38,111 nucleotides of DNA, taken from an uncultured Methanosarcinales archaeon (GTDB lineage: Archaea; Nanobdellota; Nanobdellia; Woesearchaeales; JAGVZT01). The notes beneath the pieces are model-generated. The model saw only the letters and a program-made list of their open reading frames with translations, had not been told where the DNA came from and ran no database searches. Positions 11,540 through 29,086 of the stretch are shown here, piece after piece. Position numbers and translations under genes: made by a program. The stretch spans positions 1 to 38,111 of the forward strand of contig CAYQPU010000014.1 in assembly GCA_964419615.1 (NCBI GenBank), written 5' to 3'. Positions within the stretch are counted from its first letter, which is position 1. Every line of letters begins with the position of its first letter.

Positions 11540-12496
11540 ATGAAATTATTAAAAAAAGAGGCTTTACCAGAGTTTTTTAGCAAGCTCACAAAAAAATATG
11601 AAATCATTGCTCCTGTTAAAGTAAAGAGCATTCACAGATATGAAATTGTTGATTCTTTTGATCAAATAGATCTTGACTTTATCAATACAGCATATCCTGC
11701 AAAAACATTTTTCTTGCCTAACTATGAAAAATTGTTCTCATACAAAAATAACAAAATAAAAGCACCTTTAACAGACACAAAAAGAATCATATTTGGAATC
11801 AGACCATGTGATGTAAATGCTCTTTTGACAATGGATAGAATATTTGTTGAAGATTATGTTGATCCATACTATCAAAAAAGAAGAGAAAATACAATATTAA
11901 TTGTATTAAACTGTCTAAAAACAGGTGATGATTGTTTCTGTGGCTCATTTAAAACCAACGAACTAAAAGAAGGTTTTGACTTATTATTAACAGAAACAGA
12001 TCAAGGATATGTAATAAAAACAGGAAGTGAAACTGGAATAAACCTTGTAAAAAACCTTCCAAACACTTCACTTGATCCTAAGCCAAATTTAGAATTTAAA
12101 AAATCAGGAAATCCCAAAGACATAATCAACTTAAAAAACAACTTTGAAAATGAAATCTGGGAAAAGGAAGCAAAAAATTGTCTATCCTGTGGAGCATGTA
12201 CAATAACATGTCCAACCTGTGGATGTTTTTTTGTAGAAGATGTTCCAGAACTTGATTCAAATTGTGGTGAACGTTGCAGACATTGGGCATCATGCCAATT
12301 AAAAAACTTTACAAAAGTAGCAGGCAATCATGTATTTAGAGAAGCAAGAGCTTCTAGATTAAAACACAGAATATACCATCAACTAGTATATTATAGAGAA
12401 AAATTTAACAAACAAATGTGTGTTGGATGTGGCCGATGCACAACAAACTGTCCAACTGGAATTGACATGTGTAAAATAATAGAGAACTTAAGATGA
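11540..12496 (+). CDS. hydB: Group 3b [NiFe]-hydrogenase/sulfhydrogenase beta subunit (4Fe-4S dicluster, AsrA-like)
   Basis: GIRPCDV, CFCGS, CLSCGACTITCPTCGC, CVGCGRCTTNCP. Confidence 0.9.
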   Translation: MKLLKKEALPEFFSKLTKKYEIIAPVKVKSIHRYEIVDSFDQIDLDFINTAYPAKTFFLPNYEKLFSYKNNKIKAPLTDTKRIIFGIRPCDVNALLTMDRIFVEDYVDPYYQKRRENTILIVLNCLKTGDDCFCGSFKTNELKEGFDLLLTETDQGYVIKTGSETGINLVKNLPNTSLDPKPNLEFKKSGNPKDIINLKNNFENEIWEKEAKNCLSCGACTITCPTCGCFFVEDVPELDSNCGERCRHWASCQLKNFTKVAGNHVFREARASRLKHRIYHQLVYYREKFNKQMCVGCGRCTTNCPTGIDMCKIIENLR

Positions 12497-13284
12497 ATGA
12501 ATATATCCCAGAATTTTACAAAATAATAGAAAAAACCCAACAAAGCCCAGACACTTGGCTATTAAAAGTAAAGGCAGATCTTCCTCATGAACCGGGTCAA
12601 TTTTTCCAAGCATCTGTATTAAACATGGGTGAAGCACCAATTTCTGTTTGTTCATATCAAAAAGGAGTAATAGATCTAAACATACGAGATGTTGGAAGTG
12701 TAACACATGCTATGTGCAACATGAAAGTTGGAGACAAGGTTGGAATCAGGGGACCATATGGGACAGGCTATCCAATGGAGTCTATGAAAAACAATGAAAT
12801 AATAATAATTGCTGGAGGCTCTGGTTTTAGTCCGGTAAGAGGAGTAGTAGAATATATTGAACAAAATCCCAAAGACTACAAAGGAATCACAATGTTCCTT
12901 GGATTTAGATGCCCATCTGAGGTTTTATTCAAGGATGATATTGAAAAATGGAGCAATAAATACAAAGTCAATTTAACTGTTGATAAATGCGAGCCAGAAG
13001 ACAAATGGGAAAAAAATGTTGGACTTGTAACAAAAATCCTAGAAGAATCTGGAATGGATAATAAGGAGAAAATAGTTGTAACTTGCGGTCCGCCAATCAT
13101 GATCAAGTTTGTAATTCAAACACTAAAAAAATTGGGCTTTAATGACGATCAAATATATGTCTCATTAGAAAGAATGATGAGCTGCGGAATACAAAAGTGT
13201 GGCAACTGTCTTGTTAAAAGCAAATACGTTTGTAAAGACGGCCCAGTATTCAATTACAAAGAAGGAAAAGATTTAGTAGATTAA
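12493..13284 (+). CDS. hydG: Sulfhydrogenase gamma subunit (FAD/NAD(P)-binding, 2Fe-2S)
   Basis: PGQF, GEAPIS, RGPYG, AGGSG, CGP, MSCGIQKCGNC, CKDGPVF. Confidence 0.9.
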   Translation: MNEYIPEFYKIIEKTQQSPDTWLLKVKADLPHEPGQFFQASVLNMGEAPISVCSYQKGVIDLNIRDVGSVTHAMCNMKVGDKVGIRGPYGTGYPMESMKNNEIIIIAGGSGFSPVRGVVEYIEQNPKDYKGITMFLGFRCPSEVLFKDDIEKWSNKYKVNLTVDKCEPEDKWEKNVGLVTKILEESGMDNKEKIVVTCGPPIMIKFVIQTLKKLGFNDDQIYVSLERMMSCGIQKCGNCLVKSKYVCKDGPVFNYKEGKDLVD

Positions 13285-13298
13285 AAATTTCATATGTG

Positions 13299-13470
13299 AA
13301 ATCCAGCCAACCACGGCAGCTGTCGGCCAAAGCCTTGCTTTGTCCTCGTTCGACATTCGCCTCACCAGCGCCATGCCTGGATTTTAAGCAATGATGTTGG
13401 CCGGGCGAGGCATATGCCGAGTAGGGCTCGTGTTACGAGACCGTCCGTGCCTGTATCATCATCGCCGACC
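13299..13470. ncRNA. Unidentified GC-rich structured element (candidate ncRNA or cis-element)
   Basis: 99/170 G+C over 13301-13470, versus ~30% in sampled flanking coding lines. Stems: AAATCCAG 13299-13306 / CTGGATTT 13377-13384; CTCGT-GTT-ACGAG; GGCGA/TCGCC; palindrome GGCATATGCC. Confidence 0.55.
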
Positions 13471-13486
13471 AATAAAAAACAATAAA

Positions 13487-14251
13487 ATGAACAAAAAACC
13501 AAGACTAGGAGTATTTTCGGTAACAGGCTGCTTTGGCTGTCAGCTAAGTTTAGCTTTTGTAGAAGATATTCTCTTAGAACTCCTCGGTAAATTTGAAATT
13601 GTTGCATTCCCAATGTTAAAAGAAAACAACAGCTATGAAAATCTGGACATTGCATTTATTGAAGGAAATGCTTGCAGACAAGAGGAAGTTGAAGAATTAA
13701 AAAAAATAAGAGAAAACTCAAAAATTGTGATAGCACTTGGTGCATGTGCAAACACCGGATCAGTTCAAGCAATAAAAGAAGTATGCAACAAAGAAAAAGT
13801 AATGAAAGCTGTATACAATAATAAAGAAAATTACTCAAAATACAACTCAATTGAAATTGCAGGAATCGACAAACACATTAAAGTTGACTTTCACATATAT
13901 GGGTGTCCGCCAGACAAACATGACCTTGTTCAATTCATAAAAGAAGTGTTAGTTGGTAAAACAAATCCAAAGCAAGTTGATTGGAATGTTTGTGTTGAAT
14001 GCAGAGCAAAAGGAAATGTTTGTTTACTTCAAGAAGGAGAATTTTGCATTGGAGCTGCAACCCATGGAGGATGTCAAGCACTATGTCCATCAAATGGCCA
14101 TCATTGTTTTGGTTGCCATGGTTTTTGGGACGATGCTAATATTGATGCATTAATTGAATTATTCAAAGAATATGGATTTGAAAAAGAACTAAAAAACATA
14201 TTTGCAAAATTTGATCCAACATCAGAACATGCAAAAAAGGTGCTCAAATGA
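13487..14251 (+). CDS. hydD: Group 3b hydrogenase small (delta) subunit
   Basis: GCFGC, IEG, GACA, GCPP, VCVEC...C...CIG..T.GGC.A.CP...C.GC.G. Start MNKKPRL at 13487; the ORF-track extension from 13391 runs through the GC island. Confidence 0.92.
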   Translation: MNKKPRLGVFSVTGCFGCQLSLAFVEDILLELLGKFEIVAFPMLKENNSYENLDIAFIEGNACRQEEVEELKKIRENSKIVIALGACANTGSVQAIKEVCNKEKVMKAVYNNKENYSKYNSIEIAGIDKHIKVDFHIYGCPPDKHDLVQFIKEVLVGKTNPKQVDWNVCVECRAKGNVCLLQEGEFCIGAATHGGCQALCPSNGHHCFGCHGFWDDANIDALIELFKEYGFEKELKNIFAKFDPTSEHAKKVLK

Positions 14252-15516
14252 GAACAGTAAAGCTAGATCACATAACAAAAATTGAAGGACATGCCAAACT
14301 GCACATAAAAGCAGAAGATAATAAGATAACTCACCTGGAACTAGGTGCGTTTGAAGGAGCAAGATATTTTGAAGGCCTGATTGTTGGAAGAAAACACTAC
14401 GACATCCCAATAATAACATCTAGAATCTGTGGAATCTGCAGTTGTATTCATGTAACAGCATCTGTTCAAGCAGTAGAAGCTGCATTTGGAATCAAGGCAA
14501 GCGAGCAAACAAACAAACTAAGAGAATTAATGGTGATAGGAGAAAGAATCCGAAGTCATGCCTCGCATCTATATTTATTTGCACTTCCAGATTATCTTGG
14601 ATTTGAATCCTCAATAGCAATGGCATCAAAACACAAAAAAGAAGTTGGCCAAGCTCTTGAACTAATAAAACTTGGAAACAACATTGTAACTGCAGTCGGT
14701 GGCAGAGAAATGCACCCTATCTCAACAGTTCCAGGCGGCTTCACTTCATTACCAAAACAAGATGAACTCCGAGAATTATTATCTCGATTAAAACAACAAA
14801 AACAACAAGCCATTAGTACTATTGAGTTATTTGCAAGTTTAAATTATCCTGAATTTGAAAACAAAACACAATACCTTGCTTTGGATGACAATGGATACTC
14901 AACAATATCTGGAAATATTGTAAGCTCAGATCAACAAATAAACTCAGATGATTATCTAAAACACATAAGCGAAGAAATCAAAGAATACTCAACAGCAAAA
15001 TTCTCAACAGTAAATAATAAACCTTTCTTTGTTGGATCACTATCAAGACTAAACAACCATGCAGACTCAGTGAGCAAAGACACTCAAAAATTCATAAAGA
15101 AATTCAAGTTAAAATTCCCAATCTATAATCCATTCATCAATAATCTATGCCAAGCACTTGAAATGGTGCATCACTTTGATGAAGCAATTAATCTTATTGA
15201 AAACCTTAGCATAAAACAAGAAGTACCTGTAAAAGTTGAAGATAAAACTGGCAGAGGAGTATCAGCAGTTGAAGCACCAAGAGGATTATTATTTCATGAC
15301 TATGAATTCAAAAACGGAAAACTAATCAAGGCAAACATAATAACACCAACAGCTCAAAACCTAAACAACCTTGAATCTGACTTAAGAGCATATGTTCCTT
15401 CACTACTAAAGCTTTCAGAAAAACAATTAAAACTAGAAATAGAAAAACTAATCAGAGCATATGATCCTTGTTTTAGTTGTAGTGCTCATTTCTTACAGTT
15501 AAAATTAGAAAGATAA
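14248..15516 (+). CDS. hydA: Group 3b [NiFe]-hydrogenase large (alpha) subunit
   Basis: KIEGH, L1 RICGICSCIH, EAPRG, TPTAQN, L2 AYDPCFSCSAH plus cleavable C-terminal tail FLQLKLER. Confidence 0.95.
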   Translation: MRTVKLDHITKIEGHAKLHIKAEDNKITHLELGAFEGARYFEGLIVGRKHYDIPIITSRICGICSCIHVTASVQAVEAAFGIKASEQTNKLRELMVIGERIRSHASHLYLFALPDYLGFESSIAMASKHKKEVGQALELIKLGNNIVTAVGGREMHPISTVPGGFTSLPKQDELRELLSRLKQQKQQAISTIELFASLNYPEFENKTQYLALDDNGYSTISGNIVSSDQQINSDDYLKHISEEIKEYSTAKFSTVNNKPFFVGSLSRLNNHADSVSKDTQKFIKKFKLKFPIYNPFINNLCQALEMVHHFDEAINLIENLSIKQEVPVKVEDKTGRGVSAVEAPRGLLFHDYEFKNGKLIKANIITPTAQNLNNLESDLRAYVPSLLKLSEKQLKLEIEKLIRAYDPCFSCSAHFLQLKLER

Positions 15517-21500: not shown

Positions 21501-24500
21501 GCCAAGAAGATGGAACCAATTGTCCAGCAGGAGCAGGGTCTGTTAGTCCATGGACAAATGACTCAAGCAACATCTATCCATTATATAGTAACCTAAATGT
21601 CTCAATGGACAACAATCTATTTTTCATGCATCCTGTATTAAATAGAATTGGTCTGAACACATACTTTCCAACTGTACTATTAGATATTAATGGTAGTATG
21701 AATGTAACCTCATTAACTGGGATGGTCTCAACTCCGACTTTGTGTTTAAATGGGAGTTGTAGAGCCACTTGGCCCTCAGGTACAATCACAGGATCAGGAG
21801 CAATAGATACAATCACCTTTTGGACTGGAACAACTTCAATAAGTTCAAACACAAACCTAACCTGGAACAACAGCCTCAGCAGATTAGGAATTAAAACCAC
21901 ATCTCCCTCACATGAACTAGCAGTTGTTGGCACAGCCAATATAACCGGAGATGTTATAGTTGCAGGCCAGAGTGTCTGTCAAGAAGATGGAACCAACTGT
22001 CCAGCAGGAGCAACCTCAGTAAGCCCATGGATTAATGACTCAAGTGACATATACCCATCAAGTAGTCTGAACATAACAGTAGACACAAACCTAATGTTTA
22101 TCCACCCAGGTATTGATAGAATTGGAATTGGCACAATGTATCCTTCAACAAAATTAGATGTCAATGGTTCAATTAACATAAGTGATGCAAGTGCAAGTAT
22201 GTACACTCCCGAGCTTTGCTTGAATGGTAGCTGTAGAGGAGATTGGCCAGCCGGAACAATCACTGGATCAGGAGCAATAAATACAATAACCTTCTGGACA
22301 TCAGCAACTACAATTAGCTCTAATACAAACTTAACCTGGAACAATACAATTAGTAGGTTAGGAATAAAAACCATGTCTCCTTCTCATGAATTAGCAATAG
22401 TTGGAACAGCCAATGTAACAGGAGATGTTATTGTTGCAGGTCAGAGTGTCTGTCAGGAAGACGGAACCAACTGTCCAGAAGGAGCAACATCAGTAAGTCC
22501 CTGGACTAATGACTCAAGTGACATATATCCCTCAAGTAGTTTGAACATAACAGTTGACACAAATCTAATGTTCATACACCCAGGCATTGACAGAATAGGA
22601 ATTGGGACGGTAAATCCAGCAACAAAACTAGATGTGTTTGGAGATATAAATGTAAGCAGTGCTATATCTGGAGTTTACACACCTCAATTATGTTTAAATG
22701 GCAGCTGTAGATCCACTTGGCCAGCTGGTACAATCACAGGAGCAGGAGCAGCAGATGCAGTAACATTTTGGACAAGTGATAGTTCAATCAGTTCAGATTA
22801 TAATCTAACTTGGAACAACACTCAAAAAAGATTAGGAATAGGAACAAGTTCGCCAGCAGCACCAGTACATATAACAGGAATGGCATCAGGATATGATGCA
22901 AGTCCATCACTAATAATAGACACACTCTCAAACACAGTTGCAGATCTATTATATAATGCTCAAAATGTTCAAAAATGGATAATCTCTATGAGAGATGCAG
23001 CAGCAGACAATGATCTAAGATTCTACAGATACAATGGGTCATGGCAACCTGTTTTAGTCTTAAACAGAACAAAAGGCTATGTTGGAATCGGAACCATTAC
23101 TCCAAAAGCTTTAATGGACATAGGTGGAGGAGTAGCAAACTTTATTGATGGAGCTAATGACTTACTTGTAAGAAACGATGTTGAAATAGATGGCAACCTT
23201 TATGTTGGTGGTAACATAAGTGGAAGCCTTGGTGCAACAGATATTCAAGACATCTGGGTGAATGAATCAGGTGATACAATGAATGGTTCACTAACATTTA
23301 ACAATGTAGCAAAAGACATTGAAACCCCAGCATCTCAGAACTTTGTAATATTCCCTGGAGCAAATGTTGGAATTGGAACAACCGGACCTTCAGTAAAACT
23401 AGATGTTAATGGATCAATAAATGTAAGTGACAGTACAGGTTCTTTACATACTACACAAGTATGTTTGAATGGCAGCTGTAGAGGAGATTGGCCAGCCGGA
23501 ACCATTACTGGATCAGGACTTGCAAACAGAACTGCATTTTGGCTATCAGCAACAGAATTAAGTTATGATGGAAACTTTACTTGGGACACAACAGCAAAAA
23601 GATTAGGAATAGGAACAGACTCACCATCACATGAATTATCAGTAATTGGAACAGCCAATGTATCAACAGATGTAATCGTTGCAGGTCAGAGTGTATGTCA
23701 AGAAGATGGAACAAATTGTCCGGAAGGAGCAACCTCAGTAAGCCCATGGACAAATGACTCAAGTAATATTTATCCAGTTGGAGATCACAATGTAACAGTT
23801 GACACTAATCTATTATTTGTCCACCCTGGAATAGATAGGATTGGAATCAATACAATCTACCCTACAACAGAACTTGAAATAAATGGATCATTAAATGTGA
23901 CAGGATCCACAAGTTCAGTCTTTGCAACACAATTATGCCTGAATGGAACTTGTAGAGGAGACTGGCCAGCAGGAACAATCACAGGCTCAGGATCAATAGA
24001 CACAGTAACATTTTGGACAAGTGAAACATCGATAGGATCTGATTCAAACTTCATATGGAATAATACAGACAAAAGACTCGGAATCGGAATGGGTTCTCCA
24101 TCTCATGAACTAGCAGTTTTAGGTTCAGCAAATGTAACTTCAGATGTAATAGTTGGACGAAACTTATCTGTAAATGGTACAGGTACTTTTAATGAAGAAG
24201 TAAAAGTTGCAGGACAAAGTGTATGTAGAGCAGATGGAACAAACTGTCCAGCAGGAGCAACCTCAGTAAGTCCTTGGGTTAATGATTCTAGTGATATCTA
24301 CCCAACAAGCATATGGAATGTTACAATAAATAACACACTGTTCTTTGCAAACCAAGTATTATATAGAATAGGAATTGGGACAGCTGGACCAAACGCACTA
24401 TTTGATATTGGTGGAGGAGTAGTAAGTTTCATTGATGGAGTTGATGATTTATTAGTAAAGGGAGATGCAGAAATTGATGGAAGTCTATGGGCTGAAAACA

Positions 24501-27500: not shown

Positions 27501-29086
27501 CAATGTGGTCTTCCTCAATATTTAGATGGAGAGCAGGAGGTGGAACCGCATCGTCAGGAACCGAAACAATGCTTTTAGAAAGTGATGGAGCCCTGAGCAT
27601 TGATGGTCCACTCTCTGCAGGAGACAGCTCTCCAGATAGTAATGATTACCACACATTTGGAGTAGGAGATGCAGATGAATCAGGAATCAATAGTACTGAT
27701 GATGTTTATGTAAGTGGAGATTTGGAAGTTGACGGTAACTTCTATGGTGTGATTGACTCTGGAAGTGTAGTTGATATCTGGGTAAATGCTAGTGGTGATA
27801 CAATGACTGGAGACTTAAACATGTCTAATAACCAGATCAATAACGCAAGTGTTGTTGAAACAGACATTCTATTGGTGTCAAGAATTGAAGATTCTGATAG
27901 TTCTGTAACAATGAATGACACCTTGCTATTTACAACAGATAATCAATTGGAATTTGCATCACAAAATGCTGATAAAATATATTATAATAGTAATACCTTT
28001 GGTCTTGGCACTGAAGCAGATGCCTTAACAACATGGGCTGCGAATGGATTTAGATGGAGATTTGGTGGAACGTCTGCTAGCTCTGGAACAGAAATAATGA
28101 CTCTGGATAGATCAGGTAATTTCTCTATAGATGGTGCAATATCTGTTGGAGACTCCTCACCAGATAGTCATGCTTGGCATGTATTTGGTTCAGGTGAAAA
28201 AGAAGAAATAGGAATTACTGGCCTAAATGATGTATATATTTCTGGAAATTTAGAAGTAGATGGAAACATATTTGGAAGTGTTGACAATGGTTCTGTTTCA
28301 GACATTTGGGTCAATGAATCCGGCGACACCATGACAGGCAACCTAACCATGGGAGACAATAGTATCCTTGATGCAAATGTCATCCAAACAAACATCATAG
28401 AAGATTCTGAGGATGGAGCTGTAACAATAAATGATAATTTAACATTAGCATCAGGAGGTAGAATAAACTTTGCAACAGAAATTGGTGACAAAATCTGGTG
28501 GAATGGGAACATATATGGTGCAGGTCTTGAAGCAGACACAATAACACTTTGGTCAGCTAATAGATTTAGATGGAGAGTTGGTGGCACAAATGTTAGCACT
28601 GGAACAGAAACAATGGTATTACAAAACACAGGTGCTTTGAGCATTGATGGTGTGTTAAGTGCAGGAGATACAACTCCTGATGGCAATGCTTACCACACAT
28701 TTGGAACTGGAGATGCAGACGAGGTAGCTATTGTTGATGGAGAAGATGTATTCATAAGTGGAGATCTTGAAATAGATGGAACACTATATGGTTCAATACC
28801 TCCAGGAAGTATCCAGGATATTTGGGTCAATGAATCCGGCGACACCATGACAGGTAACCTAACAATGTCAGACACCAACATATTTGATGTAAACACACTT
28901 CAAACCAATACAATTGAAGATGGAGAAGATGGCTTCCTAACAATTGATGACAATATCACTTTGACCTCTGGGGACAGAATAAACTATGCAAATGAGGTAG
29001 GAGACAAAGTATATTGGAGTGGGTCCACATATGGAACTGGAATTGAAACAGACACCTTATCCTCTTGGTCAGCAATCCATTTCTGA
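18572..29086 (+). CDS. Giant membrane-anchored surface protein, part 1: DUF5752-like head, TM helix, Ig/cadherin-like region, then phage-tail-fibre-like repeats
   Basis: 3504 aa; TM FSSAIIATAIIFMILIAGLFVL plus ITGFVV; EMSPRLNLTSAPYA domain; 8x CxxDGTNCP, 6x CLNG[ST]CR, many RLGIGT..P and WVNx[ST]GD.M.G motifs; ends at a TGA inside a repeat. Confidence 0.88.
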   Translation: MKKPKNRYKVKNPEKYFYLKNGRVIKSLEELPYAIRVINQSEFSEHVNEKKNDFANWVKHVFGKEALAKSLNNKTSKEEFTREIDNYLNKDRTHSFSSAIIATAIIFMILIAGLFVLKPTITGFVVQEELTKYTNELNLQINESGAFQLDMPVQGELTSFTITGQLIGNGTASVYFEDKLVYNSKKNLINSITGLIAGNEKQVKLKNKTKQKQDNNTNQSINNSNNSEEQPKETQKQETDEVITTEFSDICQETCSLNINKTSYTISYNIENVKLLIKNISYTLRTKEEVDNEPPLFVLTDELVAKGEQTYDLNQFFDDPDKDSLVFVTLDTENLTLDVNNNILTVSPDQGFEGKREITVFASDSYSTVKDKIQIVVVNESFQVGEIVVEIPKEEPKEQQQENTTQKQNTTVEANQTIEQNTTEIIFQNETVNLTTQTNLTDINLTLLNASELNITDQDLEEELANLTQMQAEVGKPVKWVKEVSAINLGPSPKPVIFSLDIPLESTNIVIKEKRSGNTVSKELKVKEIKDKKEKKAKRISFQHTLEPEYIAEFEIEFETESPKLEEKQAVTDIRYTKEIVIKSNASVHYKNVMAFTDIAEAPQNMIKLYHVVNGTRTEVQIDVYNDTNENGRIDRIHWTVPMLSEQSYEVSIDILNLQSNPQVGSYWTTNFVTVGQADLTINGSSGTIYGTDLEFVELKCGDTVVNTNYDGNKVQVSNYQCDETSHHKVRVITSGKHTQKFMFGGAVGYANNFASELPSTLNIQGKLTNSTGGLVNASADFVFRIYNVSSGGTALWTEAQTLTVDTGIYDAILGSVTAITLEFDVPYYLGVEVNSDGEMSPRLNLTSAPYARRAHKAEMALLVENNVVGSDQLNDTECSDGEVYKKSGGTWVCALDSGLGTESDTLETVANRSSVTTHGLTIDSDGNNLTNISSTFYVDGNQSKVGILTASPSSEFQVIGTGNFSTDVIVAGQSVCQEDGTNCPAGAGSVSPWTNDSSNIYPLYSNLNVSMDNNLFFMHPVLNRIGLNTYFPTVLLDINGSMNVTSLTGMVSTPTLCLNGSCRATWPSGTITGSGAIDTITFWTGTTSISSNTNLTWNNSLSRLGIKTTSPSHELAVVGTANITGDVIVAGQSVCQEDGTNCPAGATSVSPWINDSSDIYPSSSLNITVDTNLMFIHPGIDRIGIGTMYPSTKLDVNGSINISDASASMYTPELCLNGSCRGDWPAGTITGSGAINTITFWTSATTISSNTNLTWNNTISRLGIKTMSPSHELAIVGTANVTGDVIVAGQSVCQEDGTNCPEGATSVSPWTNDSSDIYPSSSLNITVDTNLMFIHPGIDRIGIGTVNPATKLDVFGDINVSSAISGVYTPQLCLNGSCRSTWPAGTITGAGAADAVTFWTSDSSISSDYNLTWNNTQKRLGIGTSSPAAPVHITGMASGYDASPSLIIDTLSNTVADLLYNAQNVQKWIISMRDAAADNDLRFYRYNGSWQPVLVLNRTKGYVGIGTITPKALMDIGGGVANFIDGANDLLVRNDVEIDGNLYVGGNISGSLGATDIQDIWVNESGDTMNGSLTFNNVAKDIETPASQNFVIFPGANVGIGTTGPSVKLDVNGSINVSDSTGSLHTTQVCLNGSCRGDWPAGTITGSGLANRTAFWLSATELSYDGNFTWDTTAKRLGIGTDSPSHELSVIGTANVSTDVIVAGQSVCQEDGTNCPEGATSVSPWTNDSSNIYPVGDHNVTVDTNLLFVHPGIDRIGINTIYPTTELEINGSLNVTGSTSSVFATQLCLNGTCRGDWPAGTITGSGSIDTVTFWTSETSIGSDSNFIWNNTDKRLGIGMGSPSHELAVLGSANVTSDVIVGRNLSVNGTGTFNEEVKVAGQSVCRADGTNCPAGATSVSPWVNDSSDIYPTSIWNVTINNTLFFANQVLYRIGIGTAGPNALFDIGGGVVSFIDGVDDLLVKGDAEIDGSLWAENNISANIVSGNTIIGNISAGYVEDIWVNTSGDNMTGSLQFTKVTEDIKTNASEHLALMPGGNVGIKTTNPSHDFTVLGDANISSDLIVGGVGNFTTDVQVAGESVCQEDGTNCPAGATSVSPWVNDSSDIYPTSIWNVTINNTLFFANQVLYRIGIGTAGPNALFDIGGGVVSFIDGVDDLLVKGDAEIDGSLWAENNISANIVSGNTIIGNISAGYVEDIWVNTSGDNMTGSLQFTKVTEDIKTNASEHLALMPGGNVGIKTTDPSHDLTVLGDSNVSSNLYVGGDAIVEGVGNFTTDVQVSGQSVCQEDGTNCPEGATSVSPWTNDSSKIYPSSSLNVTVDTNLLFIHPAIDRIGINTIYPTTKLDVNGSINISDASASMYTPQLCLNGTCRGDWPQGTLTGAGAADTITFWTGESTVSYDYNLTWNNTQKRLGIGTSEPSHELAVVGSANITSDIVVGENLTVSNTGTFTQDVIIAGQSACREDGTNCPEGASSVSPWINDTTKVYPRDIWNITINNTLFFANQFLDRIGIGTAGPNALFDVGGATLSYVDGVDDLIVKDDVELNGALYVGGANESVIGSGGLSLEGNLTMNDQNIFDAGTVQANILTDPDDAVLTVDDDLALTSGDQITFPSEDTDKIYWSGTDYGTGIEANTLTSWAVAQFRWRIGGTTAGTGNETMTLDSAGDLSVDGALSVGDTTPDGNNYHTFGTGDADEVEINGTSDVYISGDLEIDGIFYGLIEASNVVDIWVNETGDTMSGNLNMSDTNITDINIIIVDTITDKDSSITIDDDLALTSQDQISFVSEVADKILWSGNTYGTGVEANTLTSWSANQFRWRTGGTNVSTGTEIMKVDRGGNLSIDGLLSVGDTSPDGNEYHTFGVGDADESGINSTDDVYVSGNLEIDGTFYGTVGAGNVEDIWVNASGDTMTGNLTMADSHIFDANIIEANTLRDPEDEAITIADNLSMGSTNSIVFASENGNKIFWSGTGYGTGVEASALTMWSSSIFRWRAGGGTASSGTETMLLESDGALSIDGPLSAGDSSPDSNDYHTFGVGDADESGINSTDDVYVSGDLEVDGNFYGVIDSGSVVDIWVNASGDTMTGDLNMSNNQINNASVVETDILLVSRIEDSDSSVTMNDTLLFTTDNQLEFASQNADKIYYNSNTFGLGTEADALTTWAANGFRWRFGGTSASSGTEIMTLDRSGNFSIDGAISVGDSSPDSHAWHVFGSGEKEEIGITGLNDVYISGNLEVDGNIFGSVDNGSVSDIWVNESGDTMTGNLTMGDNSILDANVIQTNIIEDSEDGAVTINDNLTLASGGRINFATEIGDKIWWNGNIYGAGLEADTITLWSANRFRWRVGGTNVSTGTETMVLQNTGALSIDGVLSAGDTTPDGNAYHTFGTGDADEVAIVDGEDVFISGDLEIDGTLYGSIPPGSIQDIWVNESGDTMTGNLTMSDTNIFDVNTLQTNTIEDGEDGFLTIDDNITLTSGDRINYANEVGDKVYWSGSTYGTGIETDTLSSWSAIHF
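24232..25266 (+). repeat. Two identical 447-bp blocks (24232-24678 and 24820-25266; 588-bp period) within the fibre gene
   Basis: Base-by-base comparison showed no mismatch; the ORF track also has identical antisense ORFs at 24298 and 24886. Confidence 0.9.

Follow-up and report, generated by a model that had tools for sequence, protein, structure and literature searches.

A GC-rich island in a woesearchaeal hydrogenase operon consists of two oppositely oriented copies of a dispersed structured repeat

The GC-rich island between hydG and hydD

What is the GC-rich, self-complementary stretch that separates two subunit genes of an archaeal hydrogenase operon, and how did it get there? The window (the whole stretch of DNA analysed here, 38,111 nt of contig C14 in the 1.48-Mb, 33.4% GC genome G000) carries the genes hydB, hydG, hydD and hydA. 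An earlier note on this DNA had described ATGA overlaps at the other subunit junctions, and these are indeed found at hydB/hydG (12493-12496) and hydD/hydA (14248-14251). The gene ends that it gave for the remaining junction are also correct, with the hydG stop at 13284 and the hydD start at 13487. The gap between them measures 202 nt and is filled by a GC-rich island at 13299-13470, for which we obtained 57.6% GC (58% in the note); the fraction of 172-nt segments of the 1.48-Mb genome that reach 58% GC is 1.4e-5 (mean 33.4%, sd 4.5%). A chimeric assembly, also considered there, is excluded, since the identical 202-nt spacer is present in five JGI metagenome contigs from different samples, four of them covering all 202 nt and the shortest only the last 103 nt. 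The hydG copy in metagenome contigs, which is identical, matched Pfam NAD_binding_1/DHODB_Fe-S_bind, and homologues of hydD match PF01058 and bear the source name 'sulfhydrogenase subunit delta'. This population is present in the JGI samples 3300009128, 3300009320, 3300009008, 3300013119 and 3300007511. A tRNA or tmRNA search of the window yielded none.

The island is formed by two members of one dispersed repeat family, placed head-to-head with their 5′ ends touching. We refer to them as copy A and copy B. The features of the locus are listed below, with bit scores from the two covariance models (R1 and R2) presented in the next section.

11540-12496: hydB
12493-13284, plus strand: hydG (sulfhydrogenase gamma-like subunit), the upstream neighbour, stop TAA at 13282-13284, from the open reading frame list
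13285-13301, plus strand: AT-rich left linker from the hydG stop to the first repeat copy
13302-13385, minus strand: repeat copy A (domain 1 of the earlier note), outer stem P0 formed by 13299-13308 with 13376-13385
13386-13464, plus strand: repeat copy B (domain 2 of the earlier note), 89.6 bits with R1 and 72.3 bits with R2
13391-13396 with 13457-13462: P0 of copy B
13399-13406 with 13443-13451: P1 of copy B, U13448 bulged
13407-13408: J1/2 of copy B, GA
13409-13418: P2 of copy B
13419-13423: J2/3 of copy B, GAGUA
13424-13442: P3 of copy B
13465-13486, plus strand: A-rich tail from copy B to the hydD ATG, largely kept in the sister species G001, with neither a T-run nor a Shine-Dalgarno-like motif
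13487-14251, plus strand: hydD (sulfhydrogenase delta subunit), the downstream neighbour, from the open reading frame list
14248-15516: hydA

The pairings proposed from the single sequence are present: AAATCCAG at 13299 with CTGGATTT at 13376, ATGATG at 13391 with CATCAT at 13457, and GGCCGGGC at 13399 with GTCCGTGCC at 13443. Folding of the island as a single sequence does not go beyond chance (z = -1.1 for the plus strand and -2.1 for the minus strand), and hence the case for structure rests on comparison with relatives. The idea that the island folds on the minus strand holds for domain 1 and fails for domain 2, a plus-strand folder with a covariance-model match of 72-90 bits on that strand. 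The fold of copy B was returned by RNAalifold, with compensatory pairs. Copy A is a variant, in which GAACGAGGA and CCGAC replace GAGUAGG and CCGUC.

Two further observations concern copy B. The 5′ strand of its P1 (13398-13409) may pair instead with the tail past P0 (13461-13471; TTGGCCGGGCGA with TCGCCGACCAA), in competition with P1, and a comparable alternative pairing exists in G001, so that it is seen in two sequences only. Upstream of hydD, its reading frame contains no stop across the whole of copy B, back to an ATG at 13391, which would add 32 codons. In G001, of the same genus, the open stretch extends over only ~17 codons and orthologues of HydD begin at the annotated ATG, so the open frame across copy B is probably due to chance.

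A dispersed repeat family with a strand-specific fold

Relatives of domain 2 were found in other genomes of the same order. The covariance model R1, built from five of these relatives, matches 21 of the 151 genomes sampled from the order, each with 1-19 copies. An alignment of 56 matches (A3) gave the second model, R2, from which seeds of the domain-1 type are absent, and this model matches 22 of the 151 genomes of a second sample, all of the same order, with up to 23 copies each. About 15% of the sampled genomes of the order carry the family, in 1-23 copies, and about 85% have no match; G000 itself holds about 5-7 copies by R2. Domain 1 recurs in G000 at C50:2862-2948, 90% identical to copy A, and at C26:14221-14313, with the same AAATCCAGCC...GGCTGGATTT ends, so that this genome has three A-type copies with a common P0 at separate loci. 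A-type copies are hit by R2 at E values from 5e-7 to 2e-14, with 27 bits (E 5e-7) for copy A at 13302-13385, 35 bits for the C50 copy and 47 bits for one copy in genome G003. As R2 was built without A-type seeds and still matches A-type copies, domains 1 and 2 belong to one family. Two of the genomes compared are unpublished: G006 contributes one empty hyd junction and one long A-type copy (L006), G138 contributes two of the 56 aligned copies (L018 and L041), and no conclusion rests on either genome alone.

The unit is a non-coding repeat of about 70-160 nt. According to the models, every copy adopts its fold on one particular strand, as a three-way junction made of P0, of P1 with a bulged U, and of the hairpins P2 and P3. 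P0 comprises about 7-11 bp and depends on the subfamily (AACAACA/TGTTGTT, AAATCCAGCC/GGCTGGATTT or ATGATG/CATCAT); a small internal loop, 2x2 in the consensus, separates it from P1. The latter has GGC/GCC outside, the bulged U and five inner pairs, and is followed by GA. P2 is a hairpin that often reads GGC-GGGG..CCCC..GGGG-GCC, after which comes GARUA (GAACGA in the A variant), and P3 frequently ends in a GCGAAGC or GCAAAGC cap. Directly after P3 comes the 3′ strand of P1, whose opening GUC is nearly invariant. Across the family, GA and GARUA at the junction are conserved.

Some copies depart from this plan or add to it. In many of them (for example L021 864-965 and L019 1501-1598) the C-run of the GGGG..CCCC..GGGG sequence in P2 can pair with either G-run, giving mutually exclusive helices or a pseudoknot. 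The subfamily of G003 and G057 has an extra 5′ hairpin, UUCUCC-GNA-GGAGAA, just before P0 (L019 1488-1500, and upstream in L037 and L017).

Covariation among homologues, which the earlier note had proposed as a check, is present. In A3, which was fitted to the model and therefore favours the structure, 92.2% of the cells fall in standard pairs, compared with 70.1% after shuffling and 31-52% with slid partners, and both sides have changed in 25 of 26 pairs. RNAalifold gave the same fold on an independent MAFFT alignment of six copies. The fold is, furthermore, strand-specific. In 53 of the 56 copies, folding is more stable on the model strand than on its complement, and A3 holds 89 G-U or U-G cells versus 25 A-C or C-A cells, although much of the G-U excess comes from three positions and the signal is mainly site-specific. 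At one P1 position the 56 copies have G-U 35 times, A-U 21 times and G-C never.

These data bear on a reading in which the family is a palindrome at the DNA level only, its stems being kept by template switching in quasi-palindromes at replication, with no RNA role and no selection. In its favour, the arms co-vary even within a coding gene (see below), one P3 loop is its own complement (GCTTTGC for GCAAAGC), and P3 loops are of the C(GNA)G type. Loops of this type form very stable DNA mini-hairpins. Template switching, however, gives perfect Watson-Crick palindromes, whereas in the 56 copies one position alternates between G-U and A-U without a single G-C; moreover, unpaired junction bases are conserved and the fold is specific to one strand. 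We consider this reading unlikely.

The three-helix topology, with GA on both sides of the second stem and GUC after the third, also raises the question of a variant self-cleaving ribozyme of the hammerhead type. The likeness to hammerheads (RF00163, RF03152) extends to three helices round a junction, tandem GA closing the second helix and the GUC triplet. AU-rich variants of the family read CAGAUGA...GAAUAGG...CCGUC, and the AU-rich copy L019 gives a full-length, sub-threshold RAGATH-1 match (20.6 bits against a gathering threshold of 56.3, E 0.14); the extra 5′ hairpin of the G003/G057 subfamily added to this weak score. On the other hand, whole-genome scans with RF03152 and RF00163 match no other copy and give equal noise in control genomes, so that scores stand at noise level. 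The family also lacks the core positions, and what would be the core is a covarying helix. The column equivalent to U4 is A in 28 copies, G in 15, C in 5 and U in 4 and covaries as a base pair; the position equivalent to A6 is G in 35 of 56 copies, and both A6 and A14 are G in the two window copies. A hammerhead-type ribozyme is, in our opinion, most improbable.

Comparison with known RNA families led to no match. The absence of a known family, which had been anticipated, was borne out with Rfam on both strands: Rfam 15 gives 0 matches in the window at the gathering threshold and only noise for the island at E up to 10, and a search of 14 loci with copies at E up to 0.1 gave only a tRNA elsewhere. 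Nothing supports the likeness to domain 5 of group II introns that had been mentioned for the island. An origin from the Alu domain of SRP RNA, with the same three-helix topology and a GGCCGGGCG start, was rejected because the SRP RNA of G000 (C3:32984-33257) shows no likeness by eye. An archaeal bulge-helix-bulge intron was likewise rejected, as the ends lack the motif, the consensus showing instead one bulged U and, where P0 meets P1, a 2x2 internal loop. As for a K-turn, tandem G-A pairs could arise from the GA that flanks P2 on either side, with the unpaired GUA on the wrong side for the standard form. We found no description of the family in the literature, and it is apparently undescribed.

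Insertion at the hyd junction and turnover of copies

We compared the hydG-hydD junction across relatives. Four further genera of the family to which G000 belongs (G002, G003, G004 and G006) have a hydG stop and a hydD start that overlap or lie one base apart, and the empty junction of related genera is typically GATTAAAATG (TAAnATG, 1 nt). Three metagenome relatives whose HydD is 70% identical have TAAnATG or an overlap likewise and no island; a metagenome contig scan for closer relatives of the hyd locus yielded none that were useful. In more distant families the gap measures 5-35 nt, except in G019 (about 167 nt). A gap of about 200 nt is found only in G000 and G001, and the repeat is absent from all 14 other hydG-hydD junctions examined. 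Because related genera have TAAnATG where the pair sits, these junctions place the insertion of the repeat pair in the ancestor of the genus. The G019 gap (L077, G019:C65) is of another nature, and holds an in-frame, lysine- and glutamate-rich N-terminal extension of HydD with a threefold tandem repeat (gagagatcagggaagact).

TAAAA occurs at both ends of the filled hyd site (13285-13301 and 13482-13486). It could represent a 5-bp target duplication, in sequence of low complexity, and is only suggestive. No target duplication is visible when the G001 C39 copy is compared with its empty counterpart in G000 (C46).

The two copies at the hyd junction have different histories. Copy B and its orthologue in G001 are identical at 68 of 79 positions (86%), and the eleven differences lie in loops, in the outer region of P0 or in compensating pairs. 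For hydG and hydD, the same two genomes agree at 57% of third codon positions and at 41-47% of four-fold sites (binomial P = 3e-8 for copy B against coding sites). From this difference in identity, copy B has been under constraint at the hyd junction since the genus ancestor, unless recently exchanged. The G001 hyd site has no A-type copy. There, the 5′ partner of copy B is an AT-rich copy that resembles other G001 copies, while in G000 it is A-type. The second copy may have been acquired by each lineage on its own, with position and orientation coinciding, or gene conversion from paralogues may have replaced a left arm already present in the ancestor. Copy A is the younger of the two and, given its 90% identity to the G000 C50:2862-2948 copy, derives from that copy, which lies in a phospholipase-D-like (PLD-like) gene, presumably either by new insertion or by conversion of an older left arm.

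The head-to-head arrangement is not peculiar to the window. All 18 adjacent pairs (less than about 200 nt apart), from seven genomes and including two pairs in G000, have the minus-strand copy first and the 5′ ends facing. Under random orientation 18 of 18 would have a probability <1e-5, related pairs not being independent. The two arms of a pair are usually of different subtypes, so pairs are not simple self-copies.

Turnover of copies is also seen at other loci. A G001 copy between two convergent genes (C39) corresponds to the empty site in G000 (C46). Conversely, the G000 C21 copy is reduced to a 10-nt remnant in G001 (GAAACACCAC; L232, G001:C50, about 21556-21561). At the G000 C26 locus G001 keeps the left arm, and the right arm is a hairpin consisting of P0 only (AGAAATCCTGC...GGCTGGATTTC; L233, G001:C43, about 28389-28412). 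The C21 locus suggested that P0 might be formed from the target site; this was rejected, as P0 is the same in three A-type copies from different loci and the empty C46 site of G000 lacks the P0 sequence.

The G000 C50 copy lies in frame inside a PLD-like gene of 354 residues. The 28-36 extra residues that it contributes are absent from the orthologues of G003, G004, G017 and G024. The G001 gene has a copy at the same place, in frame and stop-free, with compensatory changes in P0 and P1. Two stop-free copies in frame argue for translation through the element rather than splicing. Three orthologous G000/G001 copies keep the fold by compensatory change, at a divergence where synonymous sites are saturated. 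Selfish DNA in decay would not usually retain its structure in this way, which suggests function, gene conversion or self-correction of the palindrome.

Mobility and possible roles of the repeat

The family is small, non-coding, multi-copy and present or absent between relatives, as expected for a MITE, and it behaves as a non-autonomous mobile element. Of the interpretations offered in the earlier note, that of a 'small non-autonomous mobile element' is the best supported, by a dispersed multi-copy family and by empty sites in relatives. We looked for a mobilising enzyme among three transposase families. Y1_Tnp (PF01797; IS200/RAYT type) is found in 57 of 151 genomes and, by table reading, in 9 of 21 carriers; it does not track the element, and none was seen in the high-copy genomes G001, G003, G048 and G057. 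Five high-copy genomes lack a TnpB-type domain; of these, three contain DDE_Tnp_1 and two do not. In these three transposase families, and among the genes within 2.5 kb of the 56 copies, no transposase or other mobilising gene linked to the family was found, nor any parent insertion sequence with matching terminal inverted repeats.

Prokaryotic MITEs, SPRITE and the clustered BOX/RUP/SPRITE elements of pneumococcus, reviewed together with Rickettsia palindromic elements (RPE) in PMC10969869, resemble the family in being small, non-autonomous and multi-copy, in presence/absence polymorphism and in adjacent landings, and share with many copies a terminator-like stem with a T-run. Unlike MITEs, the family lacks a clear target duplication, and no insertion sequence whose ends match was found as its parent. 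Its outer stem varies by subfamily while the inner core and the junction are conserved, which is the opposite of the pattern of elements with terminal inverted repeats. One Woesearchaea genome was counted among the MITE-densest of archaea in a MITE census, with 105 MITEs/Mb (PMC11602168).

REP and REPIN sequences of bacteria (Bertels and Rainey 2011, PMC3116915; PMC3337134) are also short, non-coding, dispersed, palindromic, mostly intergenic and persistent within lineages, and REPINs offer the closest parallel to the head-to-head rule, both consisting of inverted doublets in fixed relative orientation (PMC3116915). They differ in that REPs are hairpins of 20-40 nt whereas our units are three-way junctions of 70-160 nt, in that the arms of our doublets are usually of different subtypes, in the archaeal host, and in the Y1 transposase, which does not track the family. 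RPEs (PMC10969869) provide a parallel for the PLD-like gene, being palindromic repeats that can lie in frame in protein genes and be translated as an extra peptide (here 28-36 residues, in two species). Unlike RPEs, the family gave one in-frame case among >60 copies examined and no conserved peptide family was seen; fold and host also differ.

The same fold occurs at dozens of unrelated loci. Most copies are intergenic, and about two thirds are co-oriented with the gene on their 3′ side. Many lie between a stop codon and the TATA-like box of the 3′ gene, and therefore outside the transcript of that gene. No neighbour gene recurs within 2.5 kb of the 56 copies. Only 3 TATA-like motifs were found in the 20-39 nt bins upstream of these copies, without positioning, which gives no sign of a promoter of their own. 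A run of at least five T directly after P0 is present in 18 of the 56 copies versus 4.7% of random windows, with a matching A-run before P0, and many copies look like bidirectional archaeal terminators. The two copies of the window are exceptions, copy B being followed by the A-rich tail and the reverse complement of copy A by only four T; a terminator scan of the island gave no terminator-like site.

The earlier note had put forward, as its main reading, a non-coding RNA or riboswitch of the hydrogenase operon, possibly responsive to Ni or redox. This distribution speaks against it: the same fold stands beside unrelated genes in many genomes with no recurring neighbour, and it is absent from hydrogenase operons outside the genus, that is, from 14 other hydG-hydD junctions and from three metagenome relatives. 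A dedicated cis-regulatory RNA (riboswitch or Ni/redox sensor) would agree with the location within the operon, with the conservation of copy B in both species of the genus, and with the alternative pairing of 13398-13409 with 13461-13471 that competes with P1. It is largely refuted by the distribution, and we give it hardly any weight. The related proposal of an element 'tuning hydDA versus hydBG' survives in part: a dedicated hydrogenase switch is not retained, and a local RNA-level role of copy B at the hyd junction is plausible, copy B having been kept under constraint since the genus ancestor.

Probable, in our judgement, is the following account as a whole: two oppositely oriented copies of a non-autonomous mobile repeat family of Woesearchaeota were inserted between hydG and hydD in the genus ancestor and now form an RNA structure between cistrons that is read through. 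The island most likely forms part of the hydBGDA transcript, as it contains neither a promoter of its own nor, in the sense direction, a T-run. With it, the coupling of the hydG stop to the hydD start would be lost. Upstream of hydD there is no Shine-Dalgarno-like motif, though such motifs are common before genes in the order. Intercistronic REPs of bacteria stabilise the mRNA portion upstream of them and thereby set expression ratios within the operon. By analogy with these elements, the fold of copy B most likely serves as a stable RNA structure between cistrons and would thereby set how much hydBG message there is relative to hydDA message. The locus thus offers a concrete case in which stop/start coupling in an operon was broken by an insertion that was then fixed. 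DPANN genomes are tiny and tightly packed, yet the family has entered an operon junction, a coding frame and intergenic spacers, and the fold has been kept for as long as the genus.

Selection for a benefit to the host is a possible, though less probable, explanation of the same observations. The repeat would then be an RNA module acting at transcript ends, as an insulator or in protein binding, and copy B an exapted intercistronic element rather than a passenger. The conserved GA and GARUA, the nearly invariant GUC and the one fixed G-U argue for it, as do the three orthologous G000/G001 copies with a fold kept by compensatory change. The T-runs of five or more after P0 (18 of 56 copies versus 4.7%), with the A-run on the 5′ side, have the shape of a bidirectional archaeal terminator, and the position of many copies between a stop codon and the TATA-like box of the next gene is also in keeping with such a module. 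Against it, occurrence is patchy, with about 85% of the sampled genomes lacking a match and copy numbers of 1-23. Copies lie on either strand relative to their neighbours, at about 2:1, one copy is in a coding frame, and both window copies lack a T5 run on the sense strand.

A bolder proposal is that the junction is a functional RNA, catalytic or protein-recruiting, and that the head-to-head doublets are the two polarities of an RNA- or single-strand-based archaeal mobile element, viroid-like or retrozyme-like, with no transposase of its own. It would explain why the fold keeps to one strand and the junction is conserved, why a transposase is missing, and why doublets obey one rule; we nevertheless think it very improbable. 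Should the conserved junction prove to bind protein or to be catalytic, the family would represent a new RNA class. Otherwise, it would stand as a well-documented counterpart, in archaea, of REP/REPIN and RPE elements. In either case it is a structure-defined repeat without a known mobilising enzyme, with a head-to-head rule for neighbouring copies.

A loose pattern scan of genome contigs was swamped by chance matches in GC-rich bacteria, and 51 pattern matches in IMG/VR viral contigs included 0 confirmed by the model. Public records in which the core motif occurs bear the name Candidatus Woesearchaeota archaeon (isolates SI047_bin3, SI074_bin25 and Bin_274; L098, L114, L126, L134, L137, L144, L149, L159, L160, L163, L166 and L172), and in SI047_bin3 at least ten contigs have a core-motif match.

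Finally, an intron-bearing tRNA gene (intron of ~85 nt) lies ~40 nt downstream of the C26 repeat pair (L003 1564-1718; G000:C26, about 14351-14505). It was missed by ARAGORN and scores 49 bits with the Rfam tRNA model, and its anticodon region, read by eye as GTG, suggests a tRNA-His.
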